Shown here: piece by piece, positions 64-34,345 of the stretch
Numbering within the stretch: the stretch's first letter is position 1
How the letters are laid out: each line of letters begins with the position of its first letter
Assembly (NCBI GenBank): GCA_964585325.1
Contig: CAZPCT010000005.1
Span: 1-40,438, forward strand
DNA length: 40,438 nucleotides
Direction of reading: 5' to 3'
DNA from: an uncultured Candidatus Saccharibacteria bacterium
GTDB taxonomy: Bacteria; Patescibacteriota; Minisyncoccia; JACQLN01; CAZPCT01
Translations under genes and position numbers: made by a program
The notes under the pieces: model-generated
What the model saw: the letters and a program-made list of their open reading frames with translations, nothing else
Database searches by the model: none
Told to the model about the DNA's origin: nothing

Positions 64-1188
64 TTAACGGGACGGATTGGAGCCCCCACGCACAGCAAAG
101 TGTACGTGGCACCCTGTTGAGTTCCCTGTAGAGCCCATGTATCCAATAACCTCGCCCTGAGCCACCTGCTGGCCTCGTGAGACAATGTTACGTGCGTTAT
201 GCGCGTAGATAGTCTCGGTTCCGTTCGGATGGGAAATCTTGACGTAGTTGCCGTATCCGCCGTTCCACCCTGCATTGGTAACCGTAAGTATGGTACCGCC
301 GGCAGCGGCCTTCACCGGCGTTCCACAATATGCCGAACCCCCCATATCAACCGCGTTCAAAAAGTGGAGTCCTTGGGTGACACGCCCCGTAACCGGGAAG
401 ATGAAGTATCCGGACATATCCACCTGAGGTGCTGGAGCGGGCGCGTTCTTAATAGGCGTTGCTGATACTGCGGGTTGGGACTGCTGTGTTGTTGCTAATG
501 AGGCAGTAGTTCCGCCAGATGCCCCGGCACCAGGAACAATAATCTTCTGCCCAGGCTGAATGAGCCCTTCGCTGTGAATGTTGTTAAATGTGATGATCTC
601 ATCCACGTCTGTATCATACCAGTGGGCAATGTGACTCACCGTCTCCCCTCTGCGTACTGTGTGCTGCACGCCGTCAACAGGAAGGATGGTGAGTTCCTGG
701 CCCGGCCGCAACACAGAGCGGGACGTGAGCGCGTTGGAGGTCATCAGTGTGGCGACGGAAATATCAAAATCCTGAGCTATGCGGGAGAGTGTGTCTCCCT
801 CTTCCACTACGTAGCGCACCACCTCTGTACGAGAGTCTGCCGCCTGCGCCTGGGGCACTAATTGTGTTGCAGACAGGTCTGTCTCTTTATCCTTCTCGCT
901 CCGTGTGGCCATAAGAACCTCGCGGGCCCCCACCTCTTTCTTTCCCTGTGCCCGCGCAAGTGTGGAGTTTGGTGATTCAAAACTGCTTAGATGCGCACCA
1001 AATGCGTCCAAAAAGAAAACGGCTTTCCCAAACGGGGAGGCCGCGTATGTCGCCGGTGTAAGGGCGAGGACCGTCATAAGTAAAACAAACGCAACAACTG
1101 TTTCTGATGTACGGCGTCTCAAGCGAGAGAGTGTCTCGCTTGATATGCGTTGAGTCCTTTCTGTGAGCCGACGTGCGGCTCGTATCAT
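64..1188 (-). CDS. Secreted/membrane-anchored peptidoglycan endopeptidase with two LysM repeats and a C-terminal M23 (LytM) domain
   Basis: N-terminal hydrophobic anchor (VVAFVLLMTVLALTPATYA). LysM-like repeats: YVVEEGDTLSRIAQDF...LRPGQELTILP and HTVRRGETVSHIAHWY...IQPGQKIIVP. M23 motifs: GYGNYVKISHPNG..YAH and GYMGSTGNSTGCHVHF. Confidence 0.9.
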   Translation of the reverse strand: MIRAARRLTERTQRISSETLSRLRRRTSETVVAFVLLMTVLALTPATYAASPFGKAVFFLDAFGAHLSSFESPNSTLARAQGKKEVGAREVLMATRSEKDKETDLSATQLVPQAQAADSRTEVVRYVVEEGDTLSRIAQDFDISVATLMTSNALTSRSVLRPGQELTILPVDGVQHTVRRGETVSHIAHWYDTDVDEIITFNNIHSEGLIQPGQKIIVPGAGASGGTTASLATTQQSQPAVSATPIKNAPAPAPQVDMSGYFIFPVTGRVTQGLHFLNAVDMGGSAYCGTPVKAAAGGTILTVTNAGWNGGYGNYVKISHPNGTETIYAHNARNIVSRGQQVAQGEVIGYMGSTGNSTGCHVHFAVRGGSNPSR

Positions 1189-3392: not shown

Positions 3393-4192
3393 CTACACAA
3401 GAAGAGGTCCAAAAACGTCTTTCGGCCGCAGGAACCACTCCCAACAAACTGCGGGGACAACATTTTTTGGTAGACAAAAGTATGTTGGAGAAGGTTGCGA
3501 ATGCGGCAGACATTACGGTAGGGGAGAGAGTATTGGAGATAGGGCCCGGCGTAGGAAATCTGACAGACGCTCTTCTTTCAAAGGGGGCAGTGGTGACCGC
3601 TATAGAAAGGGACACAGCGCTCGCCGCCTTTCTTGCCCGCCACTATGGAGACTCCGTGGAAGTTCACTCGCAAGACATTCTTTCTTTTGACACAACACCA
3701 CTACCTGCGCAATACAAAGTGGTGGGCAATGTGCCCTACTACATAACGGGTAAGATCATACGCAAGTTTATGGAGAGTTCACACCTCCCGCAACGCGTGG
3801 TGTTCACTGTTCAAAAAGAGGTTGGCGAGCGCACTGCCGCGCGCCCACCTCACGCCACATTCCTTTCTGTCCTAACCCAGCTTATGGCAGACGTTTCGTT
3901 GGGTCCCGTCATTCCGGCGGACAGTTTCTGGCCAGCACCAAGGGTTGATTCCATTATTCTTGTTATTGTTCCACATGGAACACAGCCAGACCCTTCGCTT
4001 GTTTTATTGGTTCGCCAAGGATTCCATCAGCCACGAAAGACGCTCATCAACAACCTGGCGCAGCTTCCAGCATATGAACGGGACACAGTTCTGGGTGCGC
4101 TGAGACAGATGGACAGAGACGAAAAAACGAGAGCTCATGAACTCTCGTTAGACGAGTGGCAAAAACTATTTCTGTCATTAAAAACCGGGTAA
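3389..4192 (+). CDS. rsmA: 16S rRNA (adenine1518/1519-N6)-dimethyltransferase RsmA/KsgA
   Basis: GQHFLVD and the SAM-binding VLEIGPGVGNLT motif, followed by VVGNVPYYIT. The GTG start overlaps the helicase stop (GTGA at 3389-3392). Confidence 0.9.
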   Translation: MTTQEEVQKRLSAAGTTPNKLRGQHFLVDKSMLEKVANAADITVGERVLEIGPGVGNLTDALLSKGAVVTAIERDTALAAFLARHYGDSVEVHSQDILSFDTTPLPAQYKVVGNVPYYITGKIIRKFMESSHLPQRVVFTVQKEVGERTAARPPHATFLSVLTQLMADVSLGPVIPADSFWPAPRVDSIILVIVPHGTQPDPSLVLLVRQGFHQPRKTLINNLAQLPAYERDTVLGALRQMDRDEKTRAHELSLDEWQKLFLSLKTG

Positions 4193-4813
4193 GCCGCTGC
4201 CCCTTATCTCTTTAGAGGTCCCAATAATTGAAATCCACGGCCCCTTTTCGTCACGCGGACAACATGTCCCGCAACAGCTGGAATTACATGTCACATGAGT
4301 GCACGCCAGGTCGGGTCCCTTTGCCAGACCAAGCACCCACCTGTCTTCCTTCACCTCGTCATACTCATACACTTGTGAAGAGACCACGCCCCCCAGTACG
4401 GGGACGAAGCGCGTGAGCCCGCCCACCAACAAGTACCACTCATCCTGCCCGGGCGCACTACTTATCGCACCACCCGGCCCACTTTCCCACGGGCGGTCTA
4501 TTTTGATGAGCCAACCGTAGACAAAAAAGTTGCAAGAACATGTTTTTTTGTCCACCACAATACCACCAAAATCGTGGTTGCCGAAAGGGTCGGAGGGAAT
4601 ATCTACGGCCTGGGTGGGCACAGGAAGCATGGGTAAAAAAAGAAGCCCCGTAAGTACCAGAAGACCAGAAAAAATGGTGAGAAAATCTTTCCACATATCA
4701 GTCTGTTCATTATACCATTTGGGCACTTTTTTGACGCGCATGTGGATAACCTTTTTTATTTCATCCCCTTTTCTCTTGCGACTTAACGCTTTTTTCCTTC
4801 GCGAAAAGTACAT
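4178..4813 (-). CDS. Hypothetical Cys-rich exported or membrane-anchored protein, divergent from the T4SS-like operon
   Basis: Very basic N-terminus, then a hydrophobic segment FLTIFSGLLVLTGLLFLPMLPVPTQA and a possible AxA-like cleavage site. Cys clusters: CSCNFF and CTHVTCNSSCCGTCC. Alternative starts exist at 4741 (MRVKK) or M40. I recognise no family. Confidence 0.55.
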   Translation of the reverse strand: MYFSRRKKALSRKRKGDEIKKVIHMRVKKVPKWYNEQTDMWKDFLTIFSGLLVLTGLLFLPMLPVPTQAVDIPSDPFGNHDFGGIVVDKKTCSCNFFVYGWLIKIDRPWESGPGGAISSAPGQDEWYLLVGGLTRFVPVLGGVVSSQVYEYDEVKEDRWVLGLAKGPDLACTHVTCNSSCCGTCCPRDEKGPWISIIGTSKEIRGSGLPGF

Positions 4814-5112: not shown

Positions 5113-5121
5113 TGGTATAAT
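5113..5121 (+). promoter_or_regulatory. Extended -10 promoter element (TGgTATAAT) in front of the 12-ORF operon
   Basis: TG at 5113-5114 and TATAAT at 5116-5121, 10 nt upstream of the ATG at 5132. There is no good -35. An AAACCTT motif copy lies at 5096-5102. Confidence 0.45.
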
Positions 5122-5131
5122 TAGTGTATGA

Positions 5132-5881
5132 ATGGGAATCACGGAGGGCATGCGTACACACTCAACATCTAAAAAGACGTTGTGGGTAACCGTGGGCGGT
5201 ATCGCCGTCTTTGTTATTGGAGCCGTTCTGGGCTCCTTTTTGGTGCTTGGCGCCAAAAGTTCAGACGGTAAAAGTTTCTCGGTAAAAAATCTGGCCACAG
5301 TGGACCTCTCCCACCAAACGGTCTCCCCACGCAGTACGCCCCAGATTGAAAACTACACAAAAGAATTTTCTAAAACACTTCTTAACCCTTCAGGATGGGG
5401 CCAGCTTGGAGAAGACGCACAATTGTCAGATGCTCTGCTGACCCGGGACATGGGCCCGCTGGTGGAAGACTACATCAACAAAATCTCGCGCCTTCCTGAG
5501 AACACCTCGCTCAACATATCTCACTCAGTCCCACCCGAAACATATCTCAAAAATGTGAAGGCGTATCTGGTGGTTGCCACGGAAGTGTTTATTGAGATCT
5601 CCACCGAAGACATCCGTCTGTTGGAAAATGCGGAGGTACAACGCCACTACCAGAAAGACGCCTTGTTGGTGGAGGATATATTTGACGCTCTTCTGGAGCA
5701 GCCTGTTCCGCCGCAGTATGAGGCGTTGCACACCGAAACACTTATCTTTGTACATGGCCTTACAGCAACATTGGACACCGTGGGACAGCACAGCGCAGAC
5801 CCCGCCCGCACTCTTTTGCTGCCCGCCTCAACCAAACTGTTGACCGACCAACTAAACAGTGTCCTTGACCTCCTGCCATGA
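5132..5881 (+). CDS. Operon ORF1: hypothetical single-pass membrane protein with a predicted helical ectodomain
   Basis: One TM segment (TLWVTVGGIAVFVIGAVLGSFLVLGA) and a hydrophilic remainder. The stop overlaps the next start (ATGA at 5878). No recognisable motif. Confidence 0.6.
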   Translation: MGITEGMRTHSTSKKTLWVTVGGIAVFVIGAVLGSFLVLGAKSSDGKSFSVKNLATVDLSHQTVSPRSTPQIENYTKEFSKTLLNPSGWGQLGEDAQLSDALLTRDMGPLVEDYINKISRLPENTSLNISHSVPPETYLKNVKAYLVVATEVFIEISTEDIRLLENAEVQRHYQKDALLVEDIFDALLEQPVPPQYEALHTETLIFVHGLTATLDTVGQHSADPARTLLLPASTKLLTDQLNSVLDLLP

Positions 5882-7584
5882 AACATAGGCCCACCCTTTG
5901 GATAGCAAGCCTTGTTGTTACCGGCAGTATTGTCGGCCTGGCCGTTGTGTTTGCGCCTACGCCCATACACGAGCCTCCGTCGGTACAGGCCTCATTCATT
6001 GAAGATGCGTTGGGGGTTGGTTTTAATATTCTTGCGTGCAACGTCGCGAGCAGCTATGCAGATGAGCTGAAAGACCTTACCGACCGGGTCAAGGAGGAGT
6101 TGGGCGGCGCCTTGTGTGACGCAGGTGGTAATCTGCCCGTGGTTGGTCCGTTTGTACAAGACCAGTGCAATGAGGAAAGCGAGAGCGGGGATGGGCAGCC
6201 GGAGGAGAGCGACTTTGTTCCTGTTCACGTACAATTTGATAACCCGTTCTCTAAAGAAGTTGAGCGGCAGAAAATAGAACTAGTAAAAACACAGGATGCC
6301 AACTGTCTTAAGAAGGAGCTTTTGGAGTTTGTGAGTCAGAACATTATAAAGAACATTGTTGAAGACTCTGGTTTTATCACCAACTTTAGAGACCATCTGC
6401 TCACTGCGGGGGTGCAGGCTGAGTATGACTTTCTGGCGCAGCTTTCCCGGGCGGGTATCTGCCCACAAAACCGCAGTGTCATCTTCACGCTGATGGGCGG
6501 TGTGGACGCCGGTTGGGCGTCAAGCGACAACTCGCCCGAAAGTATTGTGCGTTGTTCACTGGCAGAAGTGCTTGATCTTGAAAATGGGGGGCTTGAGGCG
6601 TACTACGACGACTTTAGAACAGGAGGGTGGGACGCATGGCTCTCGCAGATAAACCCAAACAACACTCTTTTGGGACAGTACACCAGCGCAAAGGAAACGC
6701 GTGACGCTCTGATTGCCGCAAACGTGCGAGGACAAGAGGTAGAGGCCATTTCATCCGACGGGTTTAACCCAAAGAAAGAGCGGGTCTGTATTGAAGAGCA
6801 AACAATAGACTTGGGGCAAGGGTTAACGGAAACGTACTGCGTACGATATGAGGAGAATATTTTGACTCCCGGCTCTCTGCTTTCAGACCAGGTGGAGCGT
6901 GCGGCAGGTATTAAGTTAGACGATGTGCGTGGAGCGGACACGTACTACGAAATTCTCTATGAGGCCATCACCAGCGTTGGTGACTGGTTAGTTGGAAAAC
7001 TGATTGATGACGGACTCAGCTCATTCAACAGCACCCTTGCGCCACAACCCGCGCCGCCCGGTGGCGGGGGAGGAGGCACGCCTCCGCCAGGAAACACCCC
7101 ACCCCCTGCCGCGCCGCCTCCAACGAGCCCTCCTCCGGGAGGAGTGCCCCCGCCAGCTCCTGAGTCGCCCCCGCAACAGCCACCTGCGTCCCCACCACCA
7201 GGAGGAGGTTCCACGGATCCCATGCCGCCGCCTGTTATTCTGGGCCCCGCAGCCGCACCCACCTTCTTTTCTCAAAATTATTTGGTCAGTGTACAGGCAA
7301 ACCCCGGTGAGTTGGTGCAGTTTACCCTTTTGTTCCAGCCCCAGTCCTTCCTTTTTGGGTTCTCTGTTACTGATCCCTCGCTTGTACGGAACGTGAGGGC
7401 TGGAAACAACGGCGTTGCGGGATACCAGGCGCAGCAATCATACCGAGGGCAGTGCACGTCAAGCGGCACAGTAAATGTTGTAGCCACAGTAAACGCGGTG
7501 CGCGTCAACGAAATTTCGGGCCAGGTGAGCCCTGTGAGCACGGCGTCTCTGACCACCGCGGTTACACAGTCTCCATGCAACTAA
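5878..7584 (+). CDS. Operon ORF2: hypothetical membrane-anchored surface protein (globular region, ~65-aa Pro/Gly linker, C-terminal beta-rich domain)
   Basis: N-terminal anchor PTLWIASLVVTGSIVGLAVVFAP. Pro/Gly-rich tract PQPAPPGGGGGGTPPPGNTPPPAAPPPTSPPPGGVPPPAPESPPQQPPASPPPGG encoded at about 7040-7236. The C-terminal ~115 aa are rich in V/T/S/N. Confidence 0.65.
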   Translation: MKHRPTLWIASLVVTGSIVGLAVVFAPTPIHEPPSVQASFIEDALGVGFNILACNVASSYADELKDLTDRVKEELGGALCDAGGNLPVVGPFVQDQCNEESESGDGQPEESDFVPVHVQFDNPFSKEVERQKIELVKTQDANCLKKELLEFVSQNIIKNIVEDSGFITNFRDHLLTAGVQAEYDFLAQLSRAGICPQNRSVIFTLMGGVDAGWASSDNSPESIVRCSLAEVLDLENGGLEAYYDDFRTGGWDAWLSQINPNNTLLGQYTSAKETRDALIAANVRGQEVEAISSDGFNPKKERVCIEEQTIDLGQGLTETYCVRYEENILTPGSLLSDQVERAAGIKLDDVRGADTYYEILYEAITSVGDWLVGKLIDDGLSSFNSTLAPQPAPPGGGGGGTPPPGNTPPPAAPPPTSPPPGGVPPPAPESPPQQPPASPPPGGGSTDPMPPPVILGPAAAPTFFSQNYLVSVQANPGELVQFTLLFQPQSFLFGFSVTDPSLVRNVRAGNNGVAGYQAQQSYRGQCTSSGTVNVVATVNAVRVNEISGQVSPVSTASLTTAVTQSPCN

Positions 7585-7588
7585 CAGC

Positions 7589-9856
7589 ATGAATATTTCC
7601 TCCCGCACAATTAGGACGATGTCTCTTGCTCTTTTGACTGTGGTGGTAGTAGGTATTTTTGCCGTCCCTCAGCTTGCGGTGGCTCAGTCTGGTAGCTTTG
7701 GTGGCTCGGATATAGACGGTGATGGGATAACTGACAGCCGTGATAACTGCCCTTTTCAGAGCAATGGGCTTCAACAAGACAGTGACGAAGACGGGATAGG
7801 GGACGTATGTGACGAAGACCAAGGAGGCGATCCGGATGGGTCCACATTACTTACAGTTGACCGTGCTGCCGATGCAGTAAAAAACCTCCCGGCTCAGGTG
7901 ACGAACCTTGTTGCAGGCGCTTTGGCAAACGGCCCCATCGCAGATGCGGTTTTCAATGGCCTTGCGGCAATGATCTCGCTTCTTACTGCGTTTTTTGGCG
8001 TGTGGATTTTTGTGGGAGCCGTGCTACTCAACTGGGCGTTCTCGCTAGGGAGTCTCACTGGTTCCACGTTTGTGTTAACCGGGTGGTCTATTGCACGGGA
8101 CCTGGTAAATATGCTCTTTATTCTTATTTTGCTCCTTATTGCGTTTGCCACTATTCTCCGCTACCAAACGTATGGTATTAGGAACGTTCTTCCCCGCCTT
8201 ATTATTGTGGCGCTTCTTATAAACTTCTCTCTTTTGGGTGCGGGTATCATTATAGACATCGGGACCACACTTGGGCAGTACTTCACTACCGGCGGGGACC
8301 CAGCCATTGATGTGGGAATCAACATGATGGGTGCATTAGGAATTCAGCGAACATTCATACCGGAATGGTTTAAAGGAGAAAATGTTCCCGAATTTTTCCA
8401 AGGAGGGAAGGGGGGGTCCTTTCACGGGTGGGAGCTTTTTGCCTACGCGCTTTCTAATCTCTTCTTCGTTCTCATAACCACGTTCATCTTTCTTGCTATA
8501 GCCATTATTATGGTGGTGCGGGTGGTCTACCTTTGGATCCTTTTGGTATTTATGCCGTTCGCGCTTGCCGCGTGGATAGTGCCGGATCTGCGAAATTACT
8601 GGAAAAAGTGGTGGAGTCAGTTTGTGCAGTGGGCGTTTATCCCTGCGGCGCTCGGCTTTTTCATATATTTTGCGCTCTTGGTTGCGACCGGCTTTAATGA
8701 GTTCTTTCTAGCCAACGAACTTCGGTCTACCCCCAGTGCTGAGTTGGATCGTATTACTAACTTCTTTGGCTACGCCCCTCAGGTCCTCCTGCAATTTATG
8801 GCCGTTATTATCATTCTGCTTATGGGTCTCACACAATCAAAGAAAGCGGTGTTCGGCAGTGTAAAGTTCCTAGAAACGGCATCAAATGCAGCCACAAAAG
8901 CAGCAAAAGGATATGCTGGGAAGAAGGGGCGGCAAGCATGGGAGACGGGTGCCGACCGAGCCGTACACGATAAAGAAGGAAACAAGCGGGATTGGGCCGT
9001 TAAGCTTTCTAATGTTGCGGGCGCGCGTCACTTACTGCGTCCTGTGGTGGGGGCCGCAGAATCACATAGGGCAAATATTAAAAAACGTTCAAAGGAGCTG
9101 GGAAAGATGAGTCTCAGTTCTCGCTCTCTTTTGTATAAAACACAGGACGCTGAAGGAAAGGCGGCCACAGTTCATAGTTTTGGAGGTAAAGTTCCTACAT
9201 ATACCGAGGCTGATGATGAGGCTGGAAAAATTCCGACTGGAAAGAAGATTGGAGACTTTAACACTGAAAAGGTTCCAGGCATGACGGAGAAGGACTTTGA
9301 AGAACAGTTGGGCGCGCTCAAGGAGATTAACCTGGCAGATGACCTGCTTGAAGCTGCTCCTCAGTTTGCCAAACTTGTGGGGAAGAAGACGGCAGATGAG
9401 ATTGGTAAGGTTTTGGGCAAGATGGACATCAAGAAAGCGGGGGGCATTATCTCTTCCGCCTTCTACAATCCCGATGTCCAAGATCAGCTTTTTCGGCAGT
9501 TCCAGTCCACTGGTTCTTTAGACAAAGCGCACATGGCCGCTATGATGTCTAAAAACCCCAAGGCCATGCTTCACTTCTTAGAAACCAAGGGCCTTGTTTA
9601 TAAAAATACAGCAGATAATTTTGTACCGGCGGAGGAAGAAGTCTTTAACAACGAGCACATAAAGGCCTCTATCACCGAGTATGTGCACAGTTATATGGGA
9701 AAGAAGGTTCCTGGTGCGGGCTCTGGAGCCACGCGCACAGACGGCACTACATATGTTGGTGTTGAGCCTGAAGAAGGCGATGGAGACCGAGAGCCGCCCG
9801 AAGCGCCGGAGAAGTATGGTGAGCCTGTAGACGCCGAAGAAAGTGGGGACGAATAA
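7589..9856 (+). CDS. Operon ORF3: polytopic VirB6/TrbL-like channel protein with N-terminal thrombospondin type-3 Ca-binding repeats and a ~325-aa hydrophilic C-terminal tail
   Basis: Signal peptide ending AVAQ. DIDGDGITDSRDNCPFQSNGLQQDSDEDGIGDVCDED matches the TSP3 consensus DxDxDGxxDxxDNCPxxxNxxQxDxDxDGxGDxCD. About 7-8 hydrophobic helices between aa 110 and 430. The VirB6 assignment rests on topology and gene context only. Confidence 0.6.
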   Translation: MNISSRTIRTMSLALLTVVVVGIFAVPQLAVAQSGSFGGSDIDGDGITDSRDNCPFQSNGLQQDSDEDGIGDVCDEDQGGDPDGSTLLTVDRAADAVKNLPAQVTNLVAGALANGPIADAVFNGLAAMISLLTAFFGVWIFVGAVLLNWAFSLGSLTGSTFVLTGWSIARDLVNMLFILILLLIAFATILRYQTYGIRNVLPRLIIVALLINFSLLGAGIIIDIGTTLGQYFTTGGDPAIDVGINMMGALGIQRTFIPEWFKGENVPEFFQGGKGGSFHGWELFAYALSNLFFVLITTFIFLAIAIIMVVRVVYLWILLVFMPFALAAWIVPDLRNYWKKWWSQFVQWAFIPAALGFFIYFALLVATGFNEFFLANELRSTPSAELDRITNFFGYAPQVLLQFMAVIIILLMGLTQSKKAVFGSVKFLETASNAATKAAKGYAGKKGRQAWETGADRAVHDKEGNKRDWAVKLSNVAGARHLLRPVVGAAESHRANIKKRSKELGKMSLSSRSLLYKTQDAEGKAATVHSFGGKVPTYTEADDEAGKIPTGKKIGDFNTEKVPGMTEKDFEEQLGALKEINLADDLLEAAPQFAKLVGKKTADEIGKVLGKMDIKKAGGIISSAFYNPDVQDQLFRQFQSTGSLDKAHMAAMMSKNPKAMLHFLETKGLVYKNTADNFVPAEEEVFNNEHIKASITEYVHSYMGKKVPGAGSGATRTDGTTYVGVEPEEGDGDREPPEAPEKYGEPVDAEESGDE

Positions 9857-9876
9857 AACGTAAATCGTAACACATC

Positions 9877-10677
9877 GTGGTGAACACACAACTTCCATCC
9901 TGGGTCCAAGAAATGCCTGCCTCCGTAGAAAAGGAGGGGTGGGTGCGTTTTTATGCTCTTCCTGAGAGGTTGCGTGAGATGCTCTTTGATGTAGATATTG
10001 CCAACACAATGTGGCGGATAGGCCATCATACGTACGGGCTTCCGGCAAAAACAGTGAGTGCTGTGTCTGGAATAGCCGGGCTGGTAGTCCAGGGACAACT
10101 TCCGTTACAACAATTCGTTCCTCGTCTTATAGAAGAAGCGGGGCTTGACAGGAAAACTGCTCTGAGCGTGGCGCGGGACATTAATGAACAGATATTCCAG
10201 CCGGTGCGTGAGGAGCTGATGACCGTCCATGGGATTTCCCCGCAGGGAGAGGCGCGGGACCAGTCCGCTGAACCAGCAAACAGCCGGGCGGGGCAGATAG
10301 AAGCGAGGGAGCAGAACGCCCAACAAAAAGGTGGGGAGGAGGGGGCACAAAGAAAGCGGGATGAGTTGCTTGAGCGGTTGAAACAATCCCAAGAGGAACG
10401 GGGAGTAGATATATCCCCAGGGCCAGAGAATAAAAGCGAAGAGAGCAACTCTGGGGGGCAGAAAGGGGGTGGGGCGGCCGAGCCTAAAGCAACAACGGCG
10501 GCGTGGAACGGAAAGAAGATAGATCTCACCAAAATTCCTCCCCGCAGAGAGATGAATGGGAATGGGGACGGGAACCCCCTTGTTGCCGGGTCAAACGGCG
10601 AGATAAACGGTAGTGGCGAGAAAGAAAAGACTGTCCGTCTTAAAAAAGGTCCCGACGGTTATTGGTACGAGGTATAA
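9877..10677 (+). CDS. Operon ORF4: hypothetical soluble protein (helical N-terminal half, Gly/Glu/Lys/Asn-rich disordered C-terminal half)
   Basis: GTG start 20 nt after ORF3. It is the only operon ORF without a TM segment or signal peptide. Low-complexity tail: QQKGGEEGAQRKRDE...GGQKGGGAAEPK...NGNGDGNP. Confidence 0.55.
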   Translation: MVNTQLPSWVQEMPASVEKEGWVRFYALPERLREMLFDVDIANTMWRIGHHTYGLPAKTVSAVSGIAGLVVQGQLPLQQFVPRLIEEAGLDRKTALSVARDINEQIFQPVREELMTVHGISPQGEARDQSAEPANSRAGQIEAREQNAQQKGGEEGAQRKRDELLERLKQSQEERGVDISPGPENKSEESNSGGQKGGGAAEPKATTAAWNGKKIDLTKIPPRREMNGNGDGNPLVAGSNGEINGSGEKEKTVRLKKGPDGYWYEV

Positions 10678-10686
10678 TTAAAGTCC

Positions 10687-10968
10687 ATGCAGAATCAGTA
10701 TCAGGTGCCACAATTTATTGACATAGAGGACAAAGTGGTAGGCCCGCTCACCATTAAGCAATTCTTTATTATTGCCGCAGGCGTAGGCATTGCGGGCCTG
10801 TTGTTTATGGTGCTCCGCCTGGCGTTTGCCATAGTGCTTGGAGTTCCTCTCATTGCGTTTACCACATCACTCGCGCTGGTCAAGATGCATGGTATGCCGC
10901 TGTGGCGGTACATTGCCGCCGCTTTGAGCTTCTCTATTAGACCGCAGGAATATTTCTGGAAAAAATGA
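10687..10968 (+). CDS. Operon ORF5: PrgI-family (VirB3-like) small membrane protein
   Basis: 93 aa. N-terminal QVPQFIDIEDKVVGPLTIKQFF followed by two hydrophobic helices, the pattern I recall for the PrgI family. It sits directly upstream of VirB4, as in monoderm T4SSs. Confidence 0.7.
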   Translation: MQNQYQVPQFIDIEDKVVGPLTIKQFFIIAAGVGIAGLLFMVLRLAFAIVLGVPLIAFTTSLALVKMHGMPLWRYIAAALSFSIRPQEYFWKK

Positions 10969-11636
10969 TGCCACAGTCAACATCCACCCATCAATTCATA
11001 GATATTGAAGAGATCCGCGACGGGATCATAGTGACCAAGGAGAAAAACCTGCGGGCCGTGCTTATGGTCTCTTCCATTAACTTTGACCTTAAGTCTTCCG
11101 ACGAGCGGGAAGCACTCATCTACAACTTCCAGCGCCTGCTCAACTCTTTGCGGGATTACCCTATACAGATAGTGGTGCAGTCACGCCCTTTGGACTTGGC
11201 AGAATACTTTGTCTATCTACGGGAGTCCTTGGGCCAACAAGAGAACGAGCTGCTCAAAATACAGACCACCGAATACATACACTTTATTGAGGAGATGGTT
11301 GAGCTCTCAAATATTATGAATAAAATGTTCTATGTAGTAGTCCCATACAACTTAACGGTGGCGGAGAAGAAGGGGGTGTTGGGTAGATTTTTCAAAAAGA
11401 AAGGGGACGAGAAAGAGCAGCTTGAGATACACTTTGAAGAGGCGCGGAATGAGCTCATGCTACGCGTCACCCAAGTGGCCAGCCTGCTGGGCGAACTAGA
11501 CCTGCGGTCCATCCTTTTGGGCAATCGCGAGCTTATTGAGCTTTTTCATGGCTTGTACAACCCCGGCACAGCCTTGTCACAGGAAAATCTGGAACTTCTA
11601 ATTGCTACCGGAGACGAAGCAAAACAACCCGAATAA
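10965..11636 (+). CDS. Operon ORF6: VirB4 N-terminal-domain-like protein (N-terminal piece of a split VirB4)
   Basis: FIDIEEIRDGIIVTKEKNLRAVLMVSSINFDLKSSDEREALIYNFQRLLNSL..PIQIVVQS resembles the first ~100 aa of monoderm VirB4/TrsE/ConE-type ATPases. It ends at a TAA in the same reading frame as the next ORF. Confidence 0.6.
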   Translation: MMPQSTSTHQFIDIEEIRDGIIVTKEKNLRAVLMVSSINFDLKSSDEREALIYNFQRLLNSLRDYPIQIVVQSRPLDLAEYFVYLRESLGQQENELLKIQTTEYIHFIEEMVELSNIMNKMFYVVVPYNLTVAEKKGVLGRFFKKKGDEKEQLEIHFEEARNELMLRVTQVASLLGELDLRSILLGNRELIELFHGLYNPGTALSQENLELLIATGDEAKQPE

Positions 11637-11642
11637 ACACAC

Positions 11643-13409
11643 ATGAAACTTCCTTTTATAGACAAATCAAGTGACGAGGCGCCGGTGGAGAACGCACCGC
11701 TGATAGATCTTTTAGCTCCCCCCGCTCTCAAGCTTGACCCTTCATACGTACAGTTGGGAAACAAGCATCTACGCACACTCTTTGTGGCCGTCTACCCTCG
11801 CTACCTATCCGTCTCGTGGTTGGGGCCTGTGGTGAACCTGGACCGGCCCTTAGACATCTCACTACACATCACACCTATAGATACCGGGAAGATGCTTAAG
11901 AAATTTGAGAAAAAGGTGGCGCAGGTGGGAGCACAAATAAGTGAGAAGGCAGAGAAGGGATATGTTCGCGACCCGCTTTTAGAGACAGCTTATCAAGACG
12001 TTGAGGAGTTGCGGAACAGCCTCCAGCAAGGAACAGAGCACTTCTTTGAGGTGGGGCTCTACATCACGATCTACGCGGACAGTGCTAAGCAACTGGAAGA
12101 GGCGGAAAACGAGGTGACCACGCTTTTGGAGTCAAAACTGGTCTACGGAAAAACAGCGGTGTTCCAGCAAGAGCAGGGGTTCCGCTCAAGTCTCCCGTTG
12201 GGAGAAGACTTTTTAGATATTCGGTCCGGGCTCAACTCAGGGCCACTGTCTACACTCTTCCCGTTCGTGTCTGCCGATCTTACCTCAAACCGCGGCGTGC
12301 TGTACGGCATCAACAGGCACAACAACTCTCTTATTCTTTTTGACCGCTTCTCTTTGGAGAACGCCAATGCGGTCATTTTCGCAAAGTCTGGTGCGGGAAA
12401 AAGTTACAGTGTGAAACTTGAAGTGCTCCGCTCGCTTATGTTGGGGACGGATGTCATCATTGTTGACCCAGAAAACGAGTATAAGTACCTGACAGACGTG
12501 GTGGGGGGCTCATACATCAACATCTCTCTTTCTTCTTCGCACCACATTAACCCCTTTGATCTTCCTGACATAAGCGAGGAGGAGAGTGCGGAAGAAGCGC
12601 TCCGCTCGCACATCATACAGCTCACCGGTCTCATTAAGGTGATGTTGGGGAACCTCTCACCAGAAGAACAGTCCATCATAGACCGTGCACTCATAGAGAC
12701 ATACGCGCTCAGAGATATCACGCTTGAGTCTGGCTGGGAGGGAAAAGAACCGCCCCTCATGTCAGACCTGGCAGCGGTCCTTAAAAATATGGAAGGGGGC
12801 GAATCTCTTTCCACCCGCATTGAGCGCTTTGTAACAGGTTCGTTTGCGGGGTTCCTGAATAACCCCACGAACGTGGCGCTAGGAAACCAGCTGGTGACCT
12901 TTTCTATTAGGGACCTTGAGCCAGAACTTCGCCCAGTGGGCATGTTCCTTATGTTGCATTATGTATGGAACAGGATCAGGCGGGAGCTTAAGAAACGAAT
13001 ACTGGTAGTGGACGAAGCGTGGTGGATGATGCGTCATCCGGACGCTGCGGAATTCCTTTTTTCAATGGCAAAACGGGGGCGCAAGTACTACCTTGGACTC
13101 ACCACCATCACCCAAGATGTGGAGGACTTTATGAACAGCGAGTACGGGAGGCCAATTGTGACAAACTCCTCCTTGCAGCTGTTGCTACGGCAGTCCCCAG
13201 CGGCGATAGATGTGGTGCAGAAGACGTTCAACCTGACGGAGGAAGAGCGGTTCCTGCTTTTGGAGTCTAATGTGGGGGAGGGTATCTTCTTTGCGGGGCT
13301 CAAACGCGCCGCTATTAAGATTGTTGCCTCATACACGGAAGACCAGGTTATCACTTCTGACCCCGCGGAACTGTTGGAAATAGAGAAGGCTAAAAAAGAG
13401 ATTGTATAA
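11643..13409 (+). CDS. virB4: Operon ORF7: VirB4-family T4SS ATPase (C-terminal ATPase piece)
   Basis: LRTLFVAVYPRYLSVSWL segment, Walker A FAKSGAGKSYS, Walker B RILVVDEAWWMM, and LGLTTITQD (sensor-like). Length and gene order fit VirB4/TraE/PrgJ. Confidence 0.85.
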   Translation: MKLPFIDKSSDEAPVENAPLIDLLAPPALKLDPSYVQLGNKHLRTLFVAVYPRYLSVSWLGPVVNLDRPLDISLHITPIDTGKMLKKFEKKVAQVGAQISEKAEKGYVRDPLLETAYQDVEELRNSLQQGTEHFFEVGLYITIYADSAKQLEEAENEVTTLLESKLVYGKTAVFQQEQGFRSSLPLGEDFLDIRSGLNSGPLSTLFPFVSADLTSNRGVLYGINRHNNSLILFDRFSLENANAVIFAKSGAGKSYSVKLEVLRSLMLGTDVIIVDPENEYKYLTDVVGGSYINISLSSSHHINPFDLPDISEEESAEEALRSHIIQLTGLIKVMLGNLSPEEQSIIDRALIETYALRDITLESGWEGKEPPLMSDLAAVLKNMEGGESLSTRIERFVTGSFAGFLNNPTNVALGNQLVTFSIRDLEPELRPVGMFLMLHYVWNRIRRELKKRILVVDEAWWMMRHPDAAEFLFSMAKRGRKYYLGLTTITQDVEDFMNSEYGRPIVTNSSLQLLLRQSPAAIDVVQKTFNLTEEERFLLLESNVGEGIFFAGLKRAAIKIVASYTEDQVITSDPAELLEIEKAKKEIV

Positions 13410-13411
13410 AT

Positions 13412-14389
13412 ATGTCTGTGGCAACTGCATCAACCAGAACGCTTCCAAACCGCCCACCCGTGGTGCGTGAAACACATATGCCCGGCGAGGTTCCGCCCGT
13501 GGTGTCTGAGACGGGAAGAGACGCGGGGAAGAAAGAGGGTCATATAACGATGGTGGAGTTTGTGATAACACTATCACTTGCGCTCACCTTTGATTTAATA
13601 AGTTTTTTTGGCGGCCTTCTTGCAATTGCGTTTCTTGGCATTGATACTCACGCGCTCTCTTCAGTGGTTGAATTTTTCACGGGCGTGAATGTGGGCGCAG
13701 CTTTGGGGGCTTCTACTATTATTTTTCTTGGGAGTCTGAATATACTGGTCGCGCTAGGCTTCTTTACGTGGTACGCCATGAAAGGTTTGGGAGAAGAGGC
13801 CGCTATGTGGACAGGTGCATCTGCTCTTATTGAGTTCGTACCCGCTGTTCAAGCCCTGTTGTTCCAGAACGCTATTATGGTTTTCTTTATGCACAGACGA
13901 CATAGGGCGACTTTAGTGGAGGAGGTAATCAGTGCCGCAAGTGCCGCAGCAATTCTTGCCTCGGGCGGGGAGGCTGCTCCTGTTGTAGCGGGGGTAAGAG
14001 TCGTGGGGACAAAAGCCGCAAGCGCTGTTACCGTCAAAGGGGCAAGTGTGGTAGCGGGCAAGAAAGCCGCCGCAAGCGCTGCTGAAAAAACCGCGGTGCG
14101 TGGTGCCGCCACAGGCATTGCAGAAAAAGAAGCGGCGAGTAGTGCGGCAACACTGGGAACACCCGAAATGGTCGCGGGCCCCAGTCGCGCCCGCGCGTAC
14201 ACACAGAGCGCCAAGGACTACGCGACAGAAAATCTAAGTTCGGAGGCTCTGAAGAAGCGAGCTAAAGAAGAGATTAGGGAGCGGGTAAAACAAAAAAGTG
14301 TGGATGCGGTGGTGGACATCGGCTCTCATCTGCGTCGAGCTCCGCAAAATGAAGTGTATAATGAAGAGGAATCAGACGAGGCCGCATAA
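13412..14389 (+). CDS. Operon ORF8: hypothetical polytopic membrane protein with an Ala-rich C-terminal tail
   Basis: Three to four hydrophobic helices (VITLSLALTFDLISFFGGLLAIAFLGI; STIIFLGSLNILVALGFFTWYAM; ALIEFVPAVQALLFQNAIMVFFM), then an A/V/K/G-rich segment and an acidic end. Starts 2 nt after VirB4. Confidence 0.6.
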   Translation: MSVATASTRTLPNRPPVVRETHMPGEVPPVVSETGRDAGKKEGHITMVEFVITLSLALTFDLISFFGGLLAIAFLGIDTHALSSVVEFFTGVNVGAALGASTIIFLGSLNILVALGFFTWYAMKGLGEEAAMWTGASALIEFVPAVQALLFQNAIMVFFMHRRHRATLVEEVISAASAAAILASGGEAAPVVAGVRVVGTKAASAVTVKGASVVAGKKAAASAAEKTAVRGAATGIAEKEAASSAATLGTPEMVAGPSRARAYTQSAKDYATENLSSEALKKRAKEEIRERVKQKSVDAVVDIGSHLRRAPQNEVYNEEESDEAA

Positions 14390-14392
14390 AAC

Positions 14393-15142
14393 ATGAAACA
14401 CTTTGTATACATTTTAGTAGCCACCCTTGTTGCCTGGCCCATTGTCTCGCACGCTCAACTTGATGTCTTTACGCCTCTCTTCCAACAAAACACGTCCACT
14501 ACACGAAACGACTTTCCTCTTGACCTGGTGTGGAAAGCGCACACCAACACACCCGCGTTCTATGAAGGAAAGCCGCTTCCTACTAACGGCAGCCTGGTAA
14601 GCGTGGTGGCGCTGACCCCCACACAGAACACTGGCACGCTCACGTTCTTCTGGGAGACAGACGGTGTTTCGCTTGGCAGCCAGGGGACGGAGCTTGAAGG
14701 AAGAGGTGAAGATGTGTTTACGTTCATCACAAACCCTGTCATTCTCCGTCCACGACACACAGTGAGTGTCACGGCACAAAACCTTGCAACCGGCCACGTT
14801 TCCTCCGCAACGGTGGTGATTCCCGTACAAGACACGGAGGTAAAGGCCTATCTTATGAGTAGAGATACAGGTATTTTTTCTCAACATATTGACCGGTTGA
14901 ACGTGGCGCCCGGAAGCACACTTACGCTCCTTGCCGCACCATTTTATTTTGCAGAGCCCACGAGCGAGTTGGTGTTTTCCTGGACGTTCGGTAGAAAGCC
15001 CGTCTTTAACACTGGGAGCCCCGCGCTTCTAGATGTCTTTATCAACCCTGCAAGTGGCCGTGGCAGCCAAGACGCTCGGGTGGACGTGCGCGGTTCCCGT
15101 TCCCAGGCAAGTACTCATACCACCATCACCGTCTCACCATGA
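14393..15142 (+). CDS. Operon ORF9: hypothetical secreted protein, apparently two tandem beta-sandwich-like modules
   Basis: Signal peptide MKHFVYILVATLVAWPIVSHA. Two ~100-aa segments with similar patterns (GTLTFFWETDGVSLG.. and SELVFSWTFGRKPVF..). No known motif. Confidence 0.6.
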   Translation: MKHFVYILVATLVAWPIVSHAQLDVFTPLFQQNTSTTRNDFPLDLVWKAHTNTPAFYEGKPLPTNGSLVSVVALTPTQNTGTLTFFWETDGVSLGSQGTELEGRGEDVFTFITNPVILRPRHTVSVTAQNLATGHVSSATVVIPVQDTEVKAYLMSRDTGIFSQHIDRLNVAPGSTLTLLAAPFYFAEPTSELVFSWTFGRKPVFNTGSPALLDVFINPASGRGSQDARVDVRGSRSQASTHTTITVSP

Positions 15143-15867
15143 AAGCAGTATACCCGGTCATTATTATCATCCTATCATTGCCGGCCTGGCACGTCCGGGC
15201 GCAGGCCGATCCCACTGAAAGCACGCGTGTCCTTGAGGTAAACTATCCCGGAGGAAAACTTAACGAGCTGGGAGAGGCTGGAAAGCTGGGGCCGCTTCAA
15301 TGGGTTGAGACTATCTACGACTTTGCGTTTGTCATAGTAGGGGCGGTGGCGTTCATTTCTTTGGTCTATGCGGGCATCAGGTGGATGACCTCACGGCAGG
15401 ACGAGGGTATTAGGGACGCCAGAGACCGCATGCAGGGAGTTGTTTACGGCCTTCTTTTGCTGGGTGTCTCTGTTCTCCTTCTTAATCTTATTAATCCGGA
15501 TCTCACAAAACTACGAGAACCGCTTGTTAAGCCGCCCAAATCCACACTCCCAGAAAGTCCTGGTGGGGGAAGTACAAACGACCCTCGGCCCGGGCCCGAA
15601 GCAGGTTATGGGACCGCTTGCACCTTGGCAGGGGGCGGCACGGGGCCGGAGTGTTTACAGTACCAAAACCTAGAATGTAAACACACGGGTTATATTGGAG
15701 GAGGACAAAGTGGTCTCAGGTCTGGGACATGCGCTCTTCCTGACCAACTGGAGTTGGGGGAAAGTTGTTTGTTAAATGTGATTGACGTCTGCGCACCTCC
15801 ATTGCGATGTGTACGCGCTGAAAATTCAAACGCGCCCGCGAGTGTCGGCACATGCACTGCACAATGA
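15139..15867 (+). CDS. Operon ORF10: VirB2/TrbC-topology T4SS pilin-like protein with a C-terminal Cys-rich extension
   Basis: Signal peptide ending VRAQA. Two hydrophobic helices (IYDFAFVIVGAVAFISLVYAGI / VVYGLLLLGVSVLLLNLI) are split by the charged loop RWMTSRQDEGIRDARDRMQ. A Pro/Gly linker and an ~85-aa tail with 10 Cys follow. Confidence 0.65.
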   Translation: MKAVYPVIIIILSLPAWHVRAQADPTESTRVLEVNYPGGKLNELGEAGKLGPLQWVETIYDFAFVIVGAVAFISLVYAGIRWMTSRQDEGIRDARDRMQGVVYGLLLLGVSVLLLNLINPDLTKLREPLVKPPKSTLPESPGGGSTNDPRPGPEAGYGTACTLAGGGTGPECLQYQNLECKHTGYIGGGQSGLRSGTCALPDQLELGESCLLNVIDVCAPPLRCVRAENSNAPASVGTCTAQ

Positions 15868-16982
15868 CCATGAAAAAAAATCTCCTACTCATAACTATTG
15901 CCATCTTGGCTCTCGTTTTCGCTGGTCTTTCTGTATACGTTTTTGTGTTGCGGGAAGAGCCGAAGCCACCCCTATTTAGTGACACCCTTCCGTCCCCAGA
16001 AGAGCTTTTGGTCTCTGAGAGTACCGCCGACCCAGACGCCCCCCTGGCGCAACTCTCTGCCCGCCCCATCGCCGGATTTACTGCCACTGATGCGGGAGAG
16101 ATTGTGGTAGTGACTGGTGGAGGTGTGGTGCAGGTTTTGGACGGGACCGGTGTGGTGCTGGAAGAGCGGCCCTTGAGCCTGTCGCCTGTTGTTTCCGCGC
16201 GCGTCTCTCCAGACGGCCAACAGGTGGCGTTTGAGGTCATAAACACCAACACGTTGGAGGGTAGGTGGTACATATGGGACAGGGATGAGCCGACCGCTGC
16301 GCCCCGCGCCTTGCCCGCCACCGCCAGGGACATACGGTTCGCTCCCGCGGGCTCGCTCTTGAGAATTGAAGACGTAGATGACAGAATATCCACCCGCCTT
16401 GTATTGGACGCTGGTGGAAGAGAGACGGTTCTTGCAACCTCTGCTATTCCGGACCTGCAAGCCCGGTGGATAGACGACGAACGCCTTCTTATCACGAACG
16501 CCCCGTCCGGCATAGCCCCTGGGACAGCATATACACTCAACACACGCACACGCGCTTTCAGCCGCCTTATGGAAGGGCGCGCCGGCCTCAGTGCTTATTA
16601 TTTTGACAACACCCTTCTTTTTACAGAGACCCTCAGCACGAGCCGCCTGCGCACCGGGGTGCTTGTGGGAGAAGATGAGCGCTATCTTCCTGTAACAACA
16701 CTGCCCGAGCGGTGCACCCCACTTACAGAAAACGAACTTTTGTGCAGCACTCTTTACTCGCAAACGGGCGCGCGCCTTATGCCAGACGACTACTACAAGG
16801 GAGTGGTGACAAACCAGAGAAGTGACTTGGTGCGCATCTCTTCTACAGCAACAGCCGTTTCACTTGCGCGTGTTCCAATTGACGGCATTCATCCACAATT
16901 CTCCCACGACGGTAGGTATGTGTTTCTTATAAACAAAAACGACGGCGCCCTCTGGAGGGTCCGCCTGGGATCTGGCTTATAG
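15864..16982 (+). CDS. Operon ORF11: membrane-anchored protein with PD40/TolB-like beta-propeller repeats
   Basis: Anchor KKNLLLITIAILALVFAGLSVYVFVL. PD40-like motifs: VSPDGQQVAFEV and PQFSHDGRYVFLINKNDGALW. I chose the ATG at 15864 (ATGA overlap with the pilin stop); the track start is 15852. Confidence 0.6.
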   Translation: MTMKKNLLLITIAILALVFAGLSVYVFVLREEPKPPLFSDTLPSPEELLVSESTADPDAPLAQLSARPIAGFTATDAGEIVVVTGGGVVQVLDGTGVVLEERPLSLSPVVSARVSPDGQQVAFEVINTNTLEGRWYIWDRDEPTAAPRALPATARDIRFAPAGSLLRIEDVDDRISTRLVLDAGGRETVLATSAIPDLQARWIDDERLLITNAPSGIAPGTAYTLNTRTRAFSRLMEGRAGLSAYYFDNTLLFTETLSTSRLRTGVLVGEDERYLPVTTLPERCTPLTENELLCSTLYSQTGARLMPDDYYKGVVTNQRSDLVRISSTATAVSLARVPIDGIHPQFSHDGRYVFLINKNDGALWRVRLGSGL

Positions 16983-17007: not shown

Positions 17008-17035
17008 GCCGCACGTTGTGCGGCTTCTTTGTTTT
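17008..17035 (+). terminator. Rho-independent terminator closing the 12-ORF operon
   Basis: GCCGCAC-GTT-GTGCGGC hairpin (17008-17024) followed by TTCTTTGTTTT, 26 nt after the stop at 16982. Confidence 0.7.
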
Positions 17036-19005: not shown

Positions 19006-19211
19006 GTATTCAGTAGTTTAGCAAAGGGTAATTATTATGACTATAGCACCGCCTCTATGTTCTTCATTCATTGACGGGGAAGTATATTAACACGTCTTCA
19101 ACAATGTTTCCACATCAGATAGTTTCTGCCTCACTCTTTACGCTGGGGTGTGGATATGTGATATACTACCTCCTGCATTATAGTTTCGTGTTTCTCACAA
19201 ATCCTACCGAC
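19006..19211. other. rpmH-dnaA intergenic region: putative oriC/dnaA-promoter segment with DnaA-box-like 9-mers
   Basis: TGTGGATAT at 19149-19157 (rc ATATCCACA, 8/9 to TTATCCACA). GTTTCCACA at 19107-19115 (7/9). AT-rich stretch at 19027-19046. The rpmH extended -10 TGcTATAGT lies on the minus strand at 19040-19048. Confidence 0.45.
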
Positions 19212-34287: not shown

Positions 34288-34345
34288 AGCGGGGCAATAG
34301 TACCAAATATGGCCCAAAAGGGCAAACGTCCCCGCCCCTCGTAAT

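Follow-up and report, generated by a model that had tools for sequence, protein, structure and literature searches.

A probable Patescibacteria-type type IV secretion locus next to dnaA: core components and accessory genes of a Paceibacteria/Parcubacteria arrangement

The closest described systems to the locus studied here are the type IV secretion systems (T4SSs) of Patescibacteria, or candidate phyla radiation (CPR). A survey of 3,035 Patescibacteria genomes placed their VirB4 proteins in a single monophyletic clade within MPF_FATA (Quinonero-Coronel et al. 2025, PMC12102498); TrsD was the most abundant associated component, PrgI/VirB3, VirB6 and VirB2-like pilins were also found near virB4, and there were very few VirB8 and VirB1 matches. 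The same survey counted 109 relaxases (in 103 genomes), 15 of them near virB4, found homologues of the type IV coupling protein (T4CP) rarely near virB4, and showed that in Paceibacteria and Microgenomatia virB4 is often close to dnaA, dnaN, rnpA, ksgA (= rsmA) and rpmH (PMC12102498). In Ca. Southlakia epibionticum transposon sequencing revealed that the T4SS and pilin genes are essential for epibiotic growth, and neither coupling nor relaxase proteins can be recognised in this T4SS (Wang et al. 2023, PMC10633639); comEC is dispensable in the same organism (PMC10633639; PMC12857230). Here we analyze a contig of 40.4 kb (CAZPCT010000005.1, 40,438 nt, which is the whole stretch examined and is called the window), whose plus strand carries between 5132 and 16982 an operon that is in all likelihood a chromosomally fixed T4SS typical of Patescibacteria, derived from the monoderm MPF_FATA conjugation machinery and displaying a Paceibacteria/Parcubacteria arrangement.

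A first-pass annotation of this DNA had described the operon as a chromosomally fixed, non-conjugative envelope machine derived from a T4SS in an episymbiont with a small genome, its accessory proteins being mostly without annotation, a description upheld by synteny in dozens of species and by the finding of no mobility gene on the contig. The novelty that it implied does not survive, given that the components, the missing relaxase and the position near dnaA had already been published phylum-wide (PMC12102498). The system was described between 2023 and 2025; its Paceibacteria-specific accessory set remains undescribed.

The operon is composed of 11 tightly packed open reading frames (ORFs), starting at 5132, 5878, 7589, 9877, 10687, 10965, 11643, 13412, 14393, 15139 and 15864, all of them intact and tightly coupled. 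The junctions measure, in order, -4, +4, +20, +9, -4, +6, +2, +3, -4 and -4 nt, with ATGA start/stop overlaps exactly at 5878, 10965, 15139 and 15864. The first-pass annotation had reported the same-strand array, its range of junctions and the four overlaps, all of which were found; its count of twelve ORFs has to be corrected to 11, since no further ORF would fit into the gaps and its own list sums to 11. The components of the T4SS core are the following:

7589..9856, plus strand: VirB6/TrbL-like polytopic membrane protein, 755 amino acids (aa), probable from its topology and from family matches below cut-off

10687..10968, plus strand: PrgI/VirB3-like small membrane protein, 93 aa (PF12666, E=1.2e-12, 48.7 bits, cut-off 27)

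10965..11636, plus strand: TrsD-like protein, 223 aa, equivalent to the VirB4 N-terminal domain as a gene of its own (NCBIfam matches)

11643..13409, plus strand: VirB4 ATPase, 588 aa, middle and C-terminal P-loop domains (Walker A KSGAGKS, Walker B VVDEAWW)

15139..15867, plus strand: VirB2-like pilin-domain protein, 242 aa (PF18895 T4SS_pilin, E=2.7e-6, 27.8 bits, cut-off 26.6)

For comparison with relatives one genome per GTDB species was scanned, yielding more than 566 loci with a VirB4 relative, of which the best 80 were compared by tblastn of the window proteins; many of these loci end at contig ends, and the iterative hidden Markov model searches used domain fragments. Handles such as L002 denote single related loci.

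The VirB4 protein (ORF 11643) passed the cut-off of the NCBIfam family conju_CD1110 (E=4e-112, 375.9 bits against 325), a family of VirB4-like conjugal transfer ATPases named for a Clostridioides difficile locus, and contains the Pfam domains P-loop_TraG, AAA_10 and CagE_TrbE_VirB; its closest solved relative is PDB 4AG5 (E=2.9e-45), named by its depositor a type IV secretory pathway VirB4 components-like protein. At least 8000 homologues at 60-85% identity were found, and among the 120 best matches (61-85% identity) all the named ones are Patescibacteria, Parcubacteria or unclassified 'bacterium'. ORF 10965 was matched by NCBIfam VirB4_plasma (E=1e-9, profile positions 101-233), by TrsD/TraD (E=4.6e-6) and by conju_CD1110 (positions 3-152); its orthologue in relatives has a precomputed Pfam TraC-like match, TrsD is present in 77 of the 80 loci, and PrgI stands directly upstream of TrsD-VirB4 in 73 of them. 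VirB4 is split over two genes, a TrsD-like N-terminal domain (10965) and a catalytic body (11643), since the former aligns with the N-terminal 150-230 positions of VirB4 profiles, the latter with positions 188-728 of conju_CD1110; separate TrsD and VirB4 genes have been described for the pGO1 subclass of MPF_FATA systems (PMC12102498).

ORF 7589 is probably VirB6-like. Its layout is of the 'extended VirB6' type, with a signal or transmembrane (TM) segment, thrombospondin type-3 Ca-binding repeats (Pfam TSP_3, E=3e-8), about 7 TM helices and a C-terminal tail that is long and hydrophilic, and it matched the CD3337/EF1877 mobilome membrane protein at E=7.7e-5 (21.7 bits, under the cut-off of 120). 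A VirB6-like gene is present in 59 of the 80 loci; the 24 orthologues scanned gave 10 family matches to the membrane-protein families MMCAP2_0566, Mbov_0396 and CD3337_EF1877 of integrative and conjugative elements (ICEs), and the orthologue in L082 has a precomputed TrbL_3 match. The profile of this family found no match among PDB sequences, and a Pfam scan of the orthologues gave no consistent family. The thrombospondin type-3 repeats lie at residues ~40-80, after the signal/TM segment, and ORF 7589 is their sole carrier among the 24 orthologues scanned.

The pilin-domain protein (ORF 15139) consists of a signal peptide, a two-helix pilin domain (residues ~55-120), a Pro-rich linker and a C-terminal region containing all 8 Cys of the protein. 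Six orthologues were tested and all of them matched PF18895, 4 over the cut-off and 2 also weakly matching TrbC/VirB2; orthologue lengths range from 156 to 906 aa (L001-L082). The C-terminal modules differ among relatives: some weakly match Cys-rich EB/Dickkopf-like modules, that of L081 gives a weak match to PKD, and the protein of the window ends in a tail that contains Cys. This diversity suggests a VirB2-type filament decorated with variable modules.

In its reading of the core the first-pass annotation had named the PrgI/VirB3-like 93-aa protein, the VirB4 ATPase with its two Walker motifs and a VirB2-topology pilin, all confirmed by matches over the family cut-offs, and the accessions it had given for T4SS_pilin and PrgI were right. 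For its 7-8-TM VirB6/TrbL-like protein the topology was recovered and the family match was found only below cut-off, and ORF 10965, which it had left unassigned, can now be given a TrsD-like/VirB4 N-terminal domain identity by NCBIfam.

The position of the operon in the chromosome is conserved. It is flanked by rsmA on one side and by jag-yidC-yidD-rnpA-rpmH-dnaA-dnaN on the other, and in dozens of Paceibacteria/Parcubacteria species-level genomes the order uvrD - rsmA - (B) - VirB6 - (D) - PrgI - TrsD - VirB4 - (I) - pilin - (K) - jag - yidC - dnaA - dnaN recurs, the letters in parentheses being accessory genes described further below. The best 80 loci, all from CPR metagenome-assembled genomes (Paceibacterota, Parcubacteria, Nomura-, Kaiser-, Vogel-, Portnoy-, Azam- and Wolfebacteria and others), all have virB4, with 59-72% identity of its product, and include a downstream dnaA in 45 cases, yidC in 52 and an upstream rsmA in 37. 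The two closest contigs (L081 and L082, VirB4 84% and 75% identical) share the same order gene by gene, including an M23/LysM peptidase gene upstream. The locus has been inherited vertically over a long term at one chromosomal site, which excludes an ordinary ICE; that it is chromosomally fixed follows from the recurrence of flanks and gene order in dozens of species.

Moreover, every sizeable ORF of the contig was scanned against Pfam, and none of the ORFs in the 40.4 kb showed a domain of a relaxase, T4CP (VirD4/TcpA), integrase or transposase; no tRNA genes were found on the contig and no flanking direct (att-like) repeats around the operon, and the GC content is unremarkable, with no compositional anomaly. 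The core-gene flanks named by the first-pass annotation were found (with yidD and dnaN added), the relaxase, VirD4, integrase, transposase and flanking repeats that it had reported as absent from the window were likewise not detected by the Pfam scans and the repeat search, and the gene order beside dnaA that it had proposed to look for in related genomes does recur there.

When compared with the T4SS of the Patescibacteria clade, exemplified by the cluster SEML1_0006-0019 of Ca. Southlakia epibionticum (PMC12102498; PMC10633639), the locus shares VirB4, a separate TrsD, PrgI/VirB3, a probably VirB6-like protein and a PF18895 pilin, the absence of relaxase and T4CP from the cluster, and a chromosomal site near dnaA. 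The Saccharibacterial cluster differs in having a lysozyme gene (SEML1_0006) beside virB4, an NTF2-like-domain protein near VirB6 and six short pilins, and the peptidase and lysozyme homologues directly downstream of the Saccharibacterial virB4 are essential (PMC12102498); our locus instead has one long pilin with a Cys-containing C-terminus, family B before VirB6, family D between VirB6 and PrgI, and the proteins I and K. The T4SS papers compared make no mention of families B, D, I and K, and name no propeller or TolB.

The best family matches for VirB4, TrsD, PrgI and the VirB6-like protein are to monoderm MPF_FATA T4SSs (TrsC-TrsD-TrsE of pGO1/pSK41, CD1110, Prg/Pcf of pCF10, and Mbov_0396/0397 of the Mycoplasma ICE), a likeness that extends to the outer-membrane core components, none of which was detected here by Pfam or NCBIfam. 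Unlike the MPF_FATA conjugative systems, no relaxase, T4CP, VirB8-like protein (PrgL/TcpC/TraM) or in-operon VirB1-like hydrolase was detected in our locus, which stands off mobile elements in a fixed synteny; it has in addition a VirB2-like pilin, whereas Gram-positive systems have none (PMC12102498; PMC12857230). The ComB system of Helicobacter pylori and the archaeal Ced system, relaxase-free importers of nucleic acid powered by VirB4-family ATPases, have served as analogies in the literature (PMC11665869; PMC12102498). Both are functional analogues only, displaying no specific homology to this locus past the shared ATPase fold (ORF 11643 matched the NCBIfam families CedB at E=3.4e-7 and CedD at E=1.7e-4, weakly and far under the cut-offs); import here is a hypothesis.

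The remaining six ORFs of the operon are accessory genes:

5132..5881, plus strand: ORF A, 249 aa, N-terminal TM anchor and extracytoplasmic domain (one hydrophobic segment, residues 15-44)

5878..7584, plus strand: ORF B, 568 aa, TM anchor, extracytoplasmic domain, Pro-rich linker and C-terminal region

9877..10677, plus strand: ORF D, 266 aa, presumably cytoplasmic as it has no hydrophobic segment, between VirB6 and PrgI

13412..14389, plus strand: ORF H, 325 aa, small multi-pass membrane core (~100-130 aa) and lineage-specific Ala/Lys-rich tail (hydrophobic segments, residues 45-160)

14393..15142, plus strand: ORF I, 249 aa, signal peptide and apparently two tandem beta-rich repeats (alignment)

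15864..16982, plus strand: ORF K, 372 aa, which closes the operon; a TM helix at the N-terminus, then a disordered linker and a predicted extracytoplasmic beta-propeller of TolB/PD40-like type (profile, AlphaFold2 model)

By their distribution in the relatives compared, these genes fall into a conserved set, to which the pilin, K, protein I and families B and D belong, and a lineage-specific set consisting of A and H. Family B has a conserved Cys-containing extracytoplasmic domain of ~260 aa with the motifs DF..GGW.AW, P.NN and TPG, and occurs immediately upstream of VirB6 in at least 36 of the 80 loci, with 341 cluster representatives at E<=1e-3; neither Pfam nor PDB gave a match to it, even by profiles (two were run against PDB sequences), and one orthologue contains a PG_binding_1 domain. 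In ORF D a conserved stretch of ~90 aa forms the N-terminal domain, a long linker of low complexity follows, and the protein ends in a short aromatic motif. Its family gave 76 matches in the 80 loci, some as tandem paralogues; the orthologue scan showed no consistent Pfam family and the profile no PDB match. The ~90-aa domain is sometimes doubled within one protein, and the C-terminal motif is DPYRE in most relatives and aromatic (GYWYEV, GFFSA) in the clade of the window. In L081, whose VirB4 is the 84% identical one, a 98-aa gene with a 23S_rRNA_IVP domain (PF05635) lies at 2263-2559 (plus strand) between the D-family gene and prgI.

ORF I was found downstream of virB4 in 37 of the 80 loci, with relatives carrying one more N-terminal repeat; the alignment contains repeated W/Y-containing beta-type modules, and the protein looks like a secreted all-beta protein with tandem repeats. 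Its profile gave against PDB marginal matches only, none of them significant and some to Ig-like proteins. Homologue searches for ORFs K and I gave 5 and 2 proteins, respectively, hence the alignments for structure prediction were shallow, and the AlphaFold2 (AF2) model of ORF I reached a predicted local distance difference test score (pLDDT) of 30. The ORF K family is present in 53 of the 80 loci; a profile of 30 members matched the TolB propeller in PDB at E=2.6e-7 and PD40 was found in 3 orthologues. The AF2 model of ORF K (pLDDT 84.2, predicted template modelling score 0.77) is all-beta after the TM helix, and Foldseek aligned it with propellers (prolyl oligopeptidase, tricorn, WD40, TolB) at E of ~1e-8 to 1e-9. 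We are confident in modelling ORF K as a membrane-anchored extracytoplasmic beta-propeller. It resembles TolB of the Tol-Pal system in fold, sharing the PD40-type propeller, but it is not a member of the TolB family: TolB has a signal peptide and an N-terminal alpha/beta domain where ORF K has a TM anchor and a disordered linker, the generic propellers (prolyl oligopeptidase, tricorn, WD40) match ORF K as well as TolB does, and no Tol-Pal genes were found on the contig by Pfam and NCBIfam scans. Patescibacteria are thought to have no outer membrane (PMC12102498).

ORF A gave no significant Pfam or NCBIfam match; its homologues are confined to the three closest of the 80 loci (L002-L004), with a 253-aa gene at the equivalent place in L082. 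We considered ORF A as a VirB8-like protein, which its topology would fit, and rejected it for want of a supporting match and for its presence only in the closest relatives. The genes next after virB4 in L081 (256 aa) and L082 (98 aa) share the core of ORF H, and a 133-aa ORF at the same position in L002 is similar by eye only; ORF H had no Pfam match and was not found in the more distant of the 80 loci. It was rejected as a second pilin, T4SS_pilin and TrbC matches being absent in three orthologues. For no ORF of the operon did sequence or profile comparison give a match to a VirB8-like NTF2-fold subunit (PrgL/TraM/TcpC), the model of ORF K being a propeller and not NTF2. The six ORFs at 5132, 5878, 9877, 13412, 14393 and 15864 had been said by the first-pass annotation to match nothing, which still holds in Pfam, NCBIfam and PDB for most of them, 15864 being the propeller; the profile search that it had proposed for the operon proteins was made with Pfam and NCBIfam, and the unknown ORFs matched no VirB8/VirB1/TcpC-type family.

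Two sequence signals and one further gene have to be considered with the operon:

5113-5121, plus strand: extended -10 element TGgTATAAT (read from the sequence), 10 nt before the first ATG

17008-17035, plus strand: intrinsic terminator-like hairpin and T-tract, 7-bp stem with 6 GC pairs, sequence GCCGCACGTTGTGCGGC

64..1188, minus strand: M23 peptidase with two LysM domains (Pfam Peptidase_M23 2.4e-27, LysM 4.8e-26)

Both signals had been pointed out by the first-pass annotation and are present. The hairpin GCCGCACGTTGTGCGGC with its T-tract is the top-ranked terminator-like site in the region scanned and stands between the operon and the convergent jag. A strict two-hexamer promoter scan did not list TGgTATAAT, hence we infer its role as the operon promoter from the element itself; either the first gene is near-leaderless or its real start is the ATG at 5150 behind GGAGG.

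The first-pass annotation had also stated that the window has no cell-wall hydrolase, which is contradicted by the M23/LysM peptidase. This gene lies ~4 kb upstream of the operon on the opposite strand and is not part of it; its position upstream of uvrD-rsmA-T4SS is kept in L082, L035, L060 and L061. Within the operon no VirB1-like hydrolase was found by Pfam and NCBIfam. The 2025 survey reported VirB1-type matches with M23/LysM domains and VirB1 homologues associated with virB4 in Paceibacteria (PMC12102498), and the M23/LysM gene may be what it scores as the virB4-associated 'VirB1 homologue'; the peptidase is a possible stand-in for the missing VirB1-type wall hydrolase, by an association that is uncertain.

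The other sizeable ORFs of the contig are, like the M23/LysM gene, of the housekeeping kind: uvrD, rsmA, jag/khpB, yidC, yidD, rnpA, rpmH, dnaA, dnaN, dciA, yebC, ruvC, tyrS, PBP1, ruvB, a pilB-like ATPase, tsaE, polA, holA, rpsT, uvrB, ruvA, a femAB-like gene, a Mur ligase and archease. The PilB-type T2SSE/MshEN ATPase (28630-30291, minus strand, Pfam T2SSE E=5e-108) gives this organism a type IV pilus motor besides the T4SS pilin; in Saccharibacteria each of the two machines is essential by itself. Divergent from the operon, a 211-aa ORF at 4178-4813 (minus strand), with a TM segment and 8 Cys (e.g. CNSSCCGTCC), overlaps with its 3' end the end of rsmA; it had no Pfam match and no homologue in the 80 related loci, and may encode a surface protein particular to this lineage, unless the ORF is spurious. 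The longest dnaA ORF (19071-20588, plus strand) has a TTG start and encodes 505 aa with a hydrophobic N-terminal extension; the real start is probably ~45-50 codons downstream, as DnaA is only 451-453 aa long in the two closest relatives. The GC content falls to 0.43-0.44 over dnaA-dnaN. Matches to the DnaA box TTATCCACA with at most one mismatch numbered 12 against 7.3 expected, a count reached by 9 of 100 shuffles and so uninformative on the origin. In the 205-aa ORF at 34006-34623 (minus strand) ribosomal protein S20 occupies only residues 116-196, which reflects either a long N-terminal extension or an over-called start codon.

Several points weigh against identifying the operon as a Patescibacteria-type T4SS with a transport function. 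Its placement in the Patescibacteria VirB4 clade comes from best matches and not from a tree, the VirB6 assignment of ORF 7589 depends on matches under the family cut-offs, and no VirB8-like nor in-operon VirB1-like component was detected, so that the crossing of the wall lacks an explanation. Our scans cover this contig, and a T4CP or relaxase may be encoded elsewhere in the genome; VirD4-like genes are present in most Patescibacteria genomes, usually far from virB4 (PMC12102498). A T4SS function at this and at any Paceibacteria-type locus is predicted from genes alone, and a 2024 perspective calls the role 'completely unknown' and suggests nucleotide acquisition (PMC11665869).

Conjugation itself is at most a very improbable function. 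That VirB4, TrsD, PrgI and VirB6 are homologous to the conjugation apparatus of Firmicutes and Mollicutes would suit a conjugative element of the usual kind near dnaA, or what is left there of a decayed ICE, and the relaxase, T4CP and integrase of such an element could lie just off the contig, which reaches only 5 kb past the operon on the upstream side and 23 kb on the downstream side. Core-gene flanks and order are nevertheless identical in dozens of species whose VirB4 is only 60-72% identical, the contig has normal GC and no integrase, transposase, relaxase, tRNA or direct repeats, the ORFs are all intact and tightly coupled, and only 15 of the 109 relaxases in 3,035 genomes are near virB4 (PMC12102498); this reading is close to refuted, and we grant it scarcely any probability. 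A somewhat better, still quite small chance is left to an organelle dedicated to adhesion, in which the core would assemble a VirB2-type filament, decorated by the C-terminal part of the pilin, for attachment to the host and nothing would pass through. It would agree with the conservation in the operon of a pilin gene with a variable C-terminal module, with the resemblance of the extracytoplasmic beta-rich and propeller proteins to binding modules, and with the view of conjugative pili as mainly attachment organelles (PMC12857230). Yet a type IV pilus ATPase is encoded on the same contig, and in Saccharibacteria type IV pili already provide adhesion and motility with the T4SS being separately essential (PMC11665869; PMC12857230); an extended VirB6 with a large hydrophilic tail and family D also seem to be more than the biogenesis of a pilus needs.

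Export and uptake are harder to separate, since our data fit both alike. A T4SS translocating effectors would export proteins, perhaps some of them encoded in the operon, into the host cell or onto it so as to manipulate the host, and recognise its substrates without VirD4-type coupling, as do Bordetella Ptl and Brucella VirB. The absence of T4CP and relaxase from the contig agrees with this, protein-secreting T4SSs without T4CP being known (PMC12102498; PMC12857230), Wang et al. propose that the Saccharibacterial system 'may instead export proteins' (PMC10633639), and family D, with its disordered linker, conserved C-terminal peptide and no hydrophobic segment, could be a substrate or an adaptor. 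We consider effector export possible but rather unlikely, as the Pfam and NCBIfam scans revealed in or beside the operon no candidate effector in which a toxin or enzyme domain could be recognised, and results with strain OT8 point the other way: a preprint describes tubular structures, maybe T4SS pili, and host RNA uptake in this cultivated Minisyncoccota strain (bioRxiv 10.64898/2026.06.21.733656). The direction that we tentatively propose, at somewhat less than an even chance, is inward, with nucleic acid or other macromolecules being taken up from the host.

A working mechanism for the predicted Patescibacteria-type T4SS can be outlined. VirB4, with its TrsD-like N-domain, would dock on PrgI/VirB3 and on the VirB6-like channel protein and supply the power by which the VirB2-like pilin is pulled out of the membrane and polymerised into a tube crossing the wall, which B, I and K may scaffold or anchor in the envelope or bring into contact with the host. 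In VirB2/TraA filaments both termini of the pilin face outward, so the variable C-terminal module would decorate the surface of the filament and be displayed on its outside. Protein D may act as an adaptor or be itself a substrate. The tube would bridge to the host cell and sustain a contact-dependent traffic of macromolecules serving epibiotic growth and not conjugation. A bolder version, unlikely as we see it, holds that B, D, H, I, K and the variable pilin form a module of their own replacing VirB1, VirB8, the adhesin and the coupling protein, with D as the adaptor between VirB4 and its substrates and B, I and K as a wall-spanning or host-binding part of a conduit importing host RNA or DNA; if true, such a replacement module would amount to a novel way of building a T4SS and would supply the route, so far missing, by which CPR bacteria acquire nucleotides.

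Patescibacteria account for much of the diversity of bacteria, are unable to synthesise nucleotides, amino acids or lipids themselves, and live attached to host cells; the T4SS is one of the few machines kept across them and is essential in the one species tested. This retention and essentiality put the T4SS among the foremost candidates for the means by which these organisms obtain food from their hosts. To the 2023-2025 papers our general conclusion adds nothing, the contribution being a gene-by-gene parts list of the Paceibacteria/Parcubacteria version: the division of accessory genes into conserved and lineage-specific, a confident propeller model for the last gene and the variable C-terminal modules of the pilin, which are incremental to a known system. 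The list of accessory parts provides concrete targets for structure and genetics work in the few cultivated Paceibacteria.

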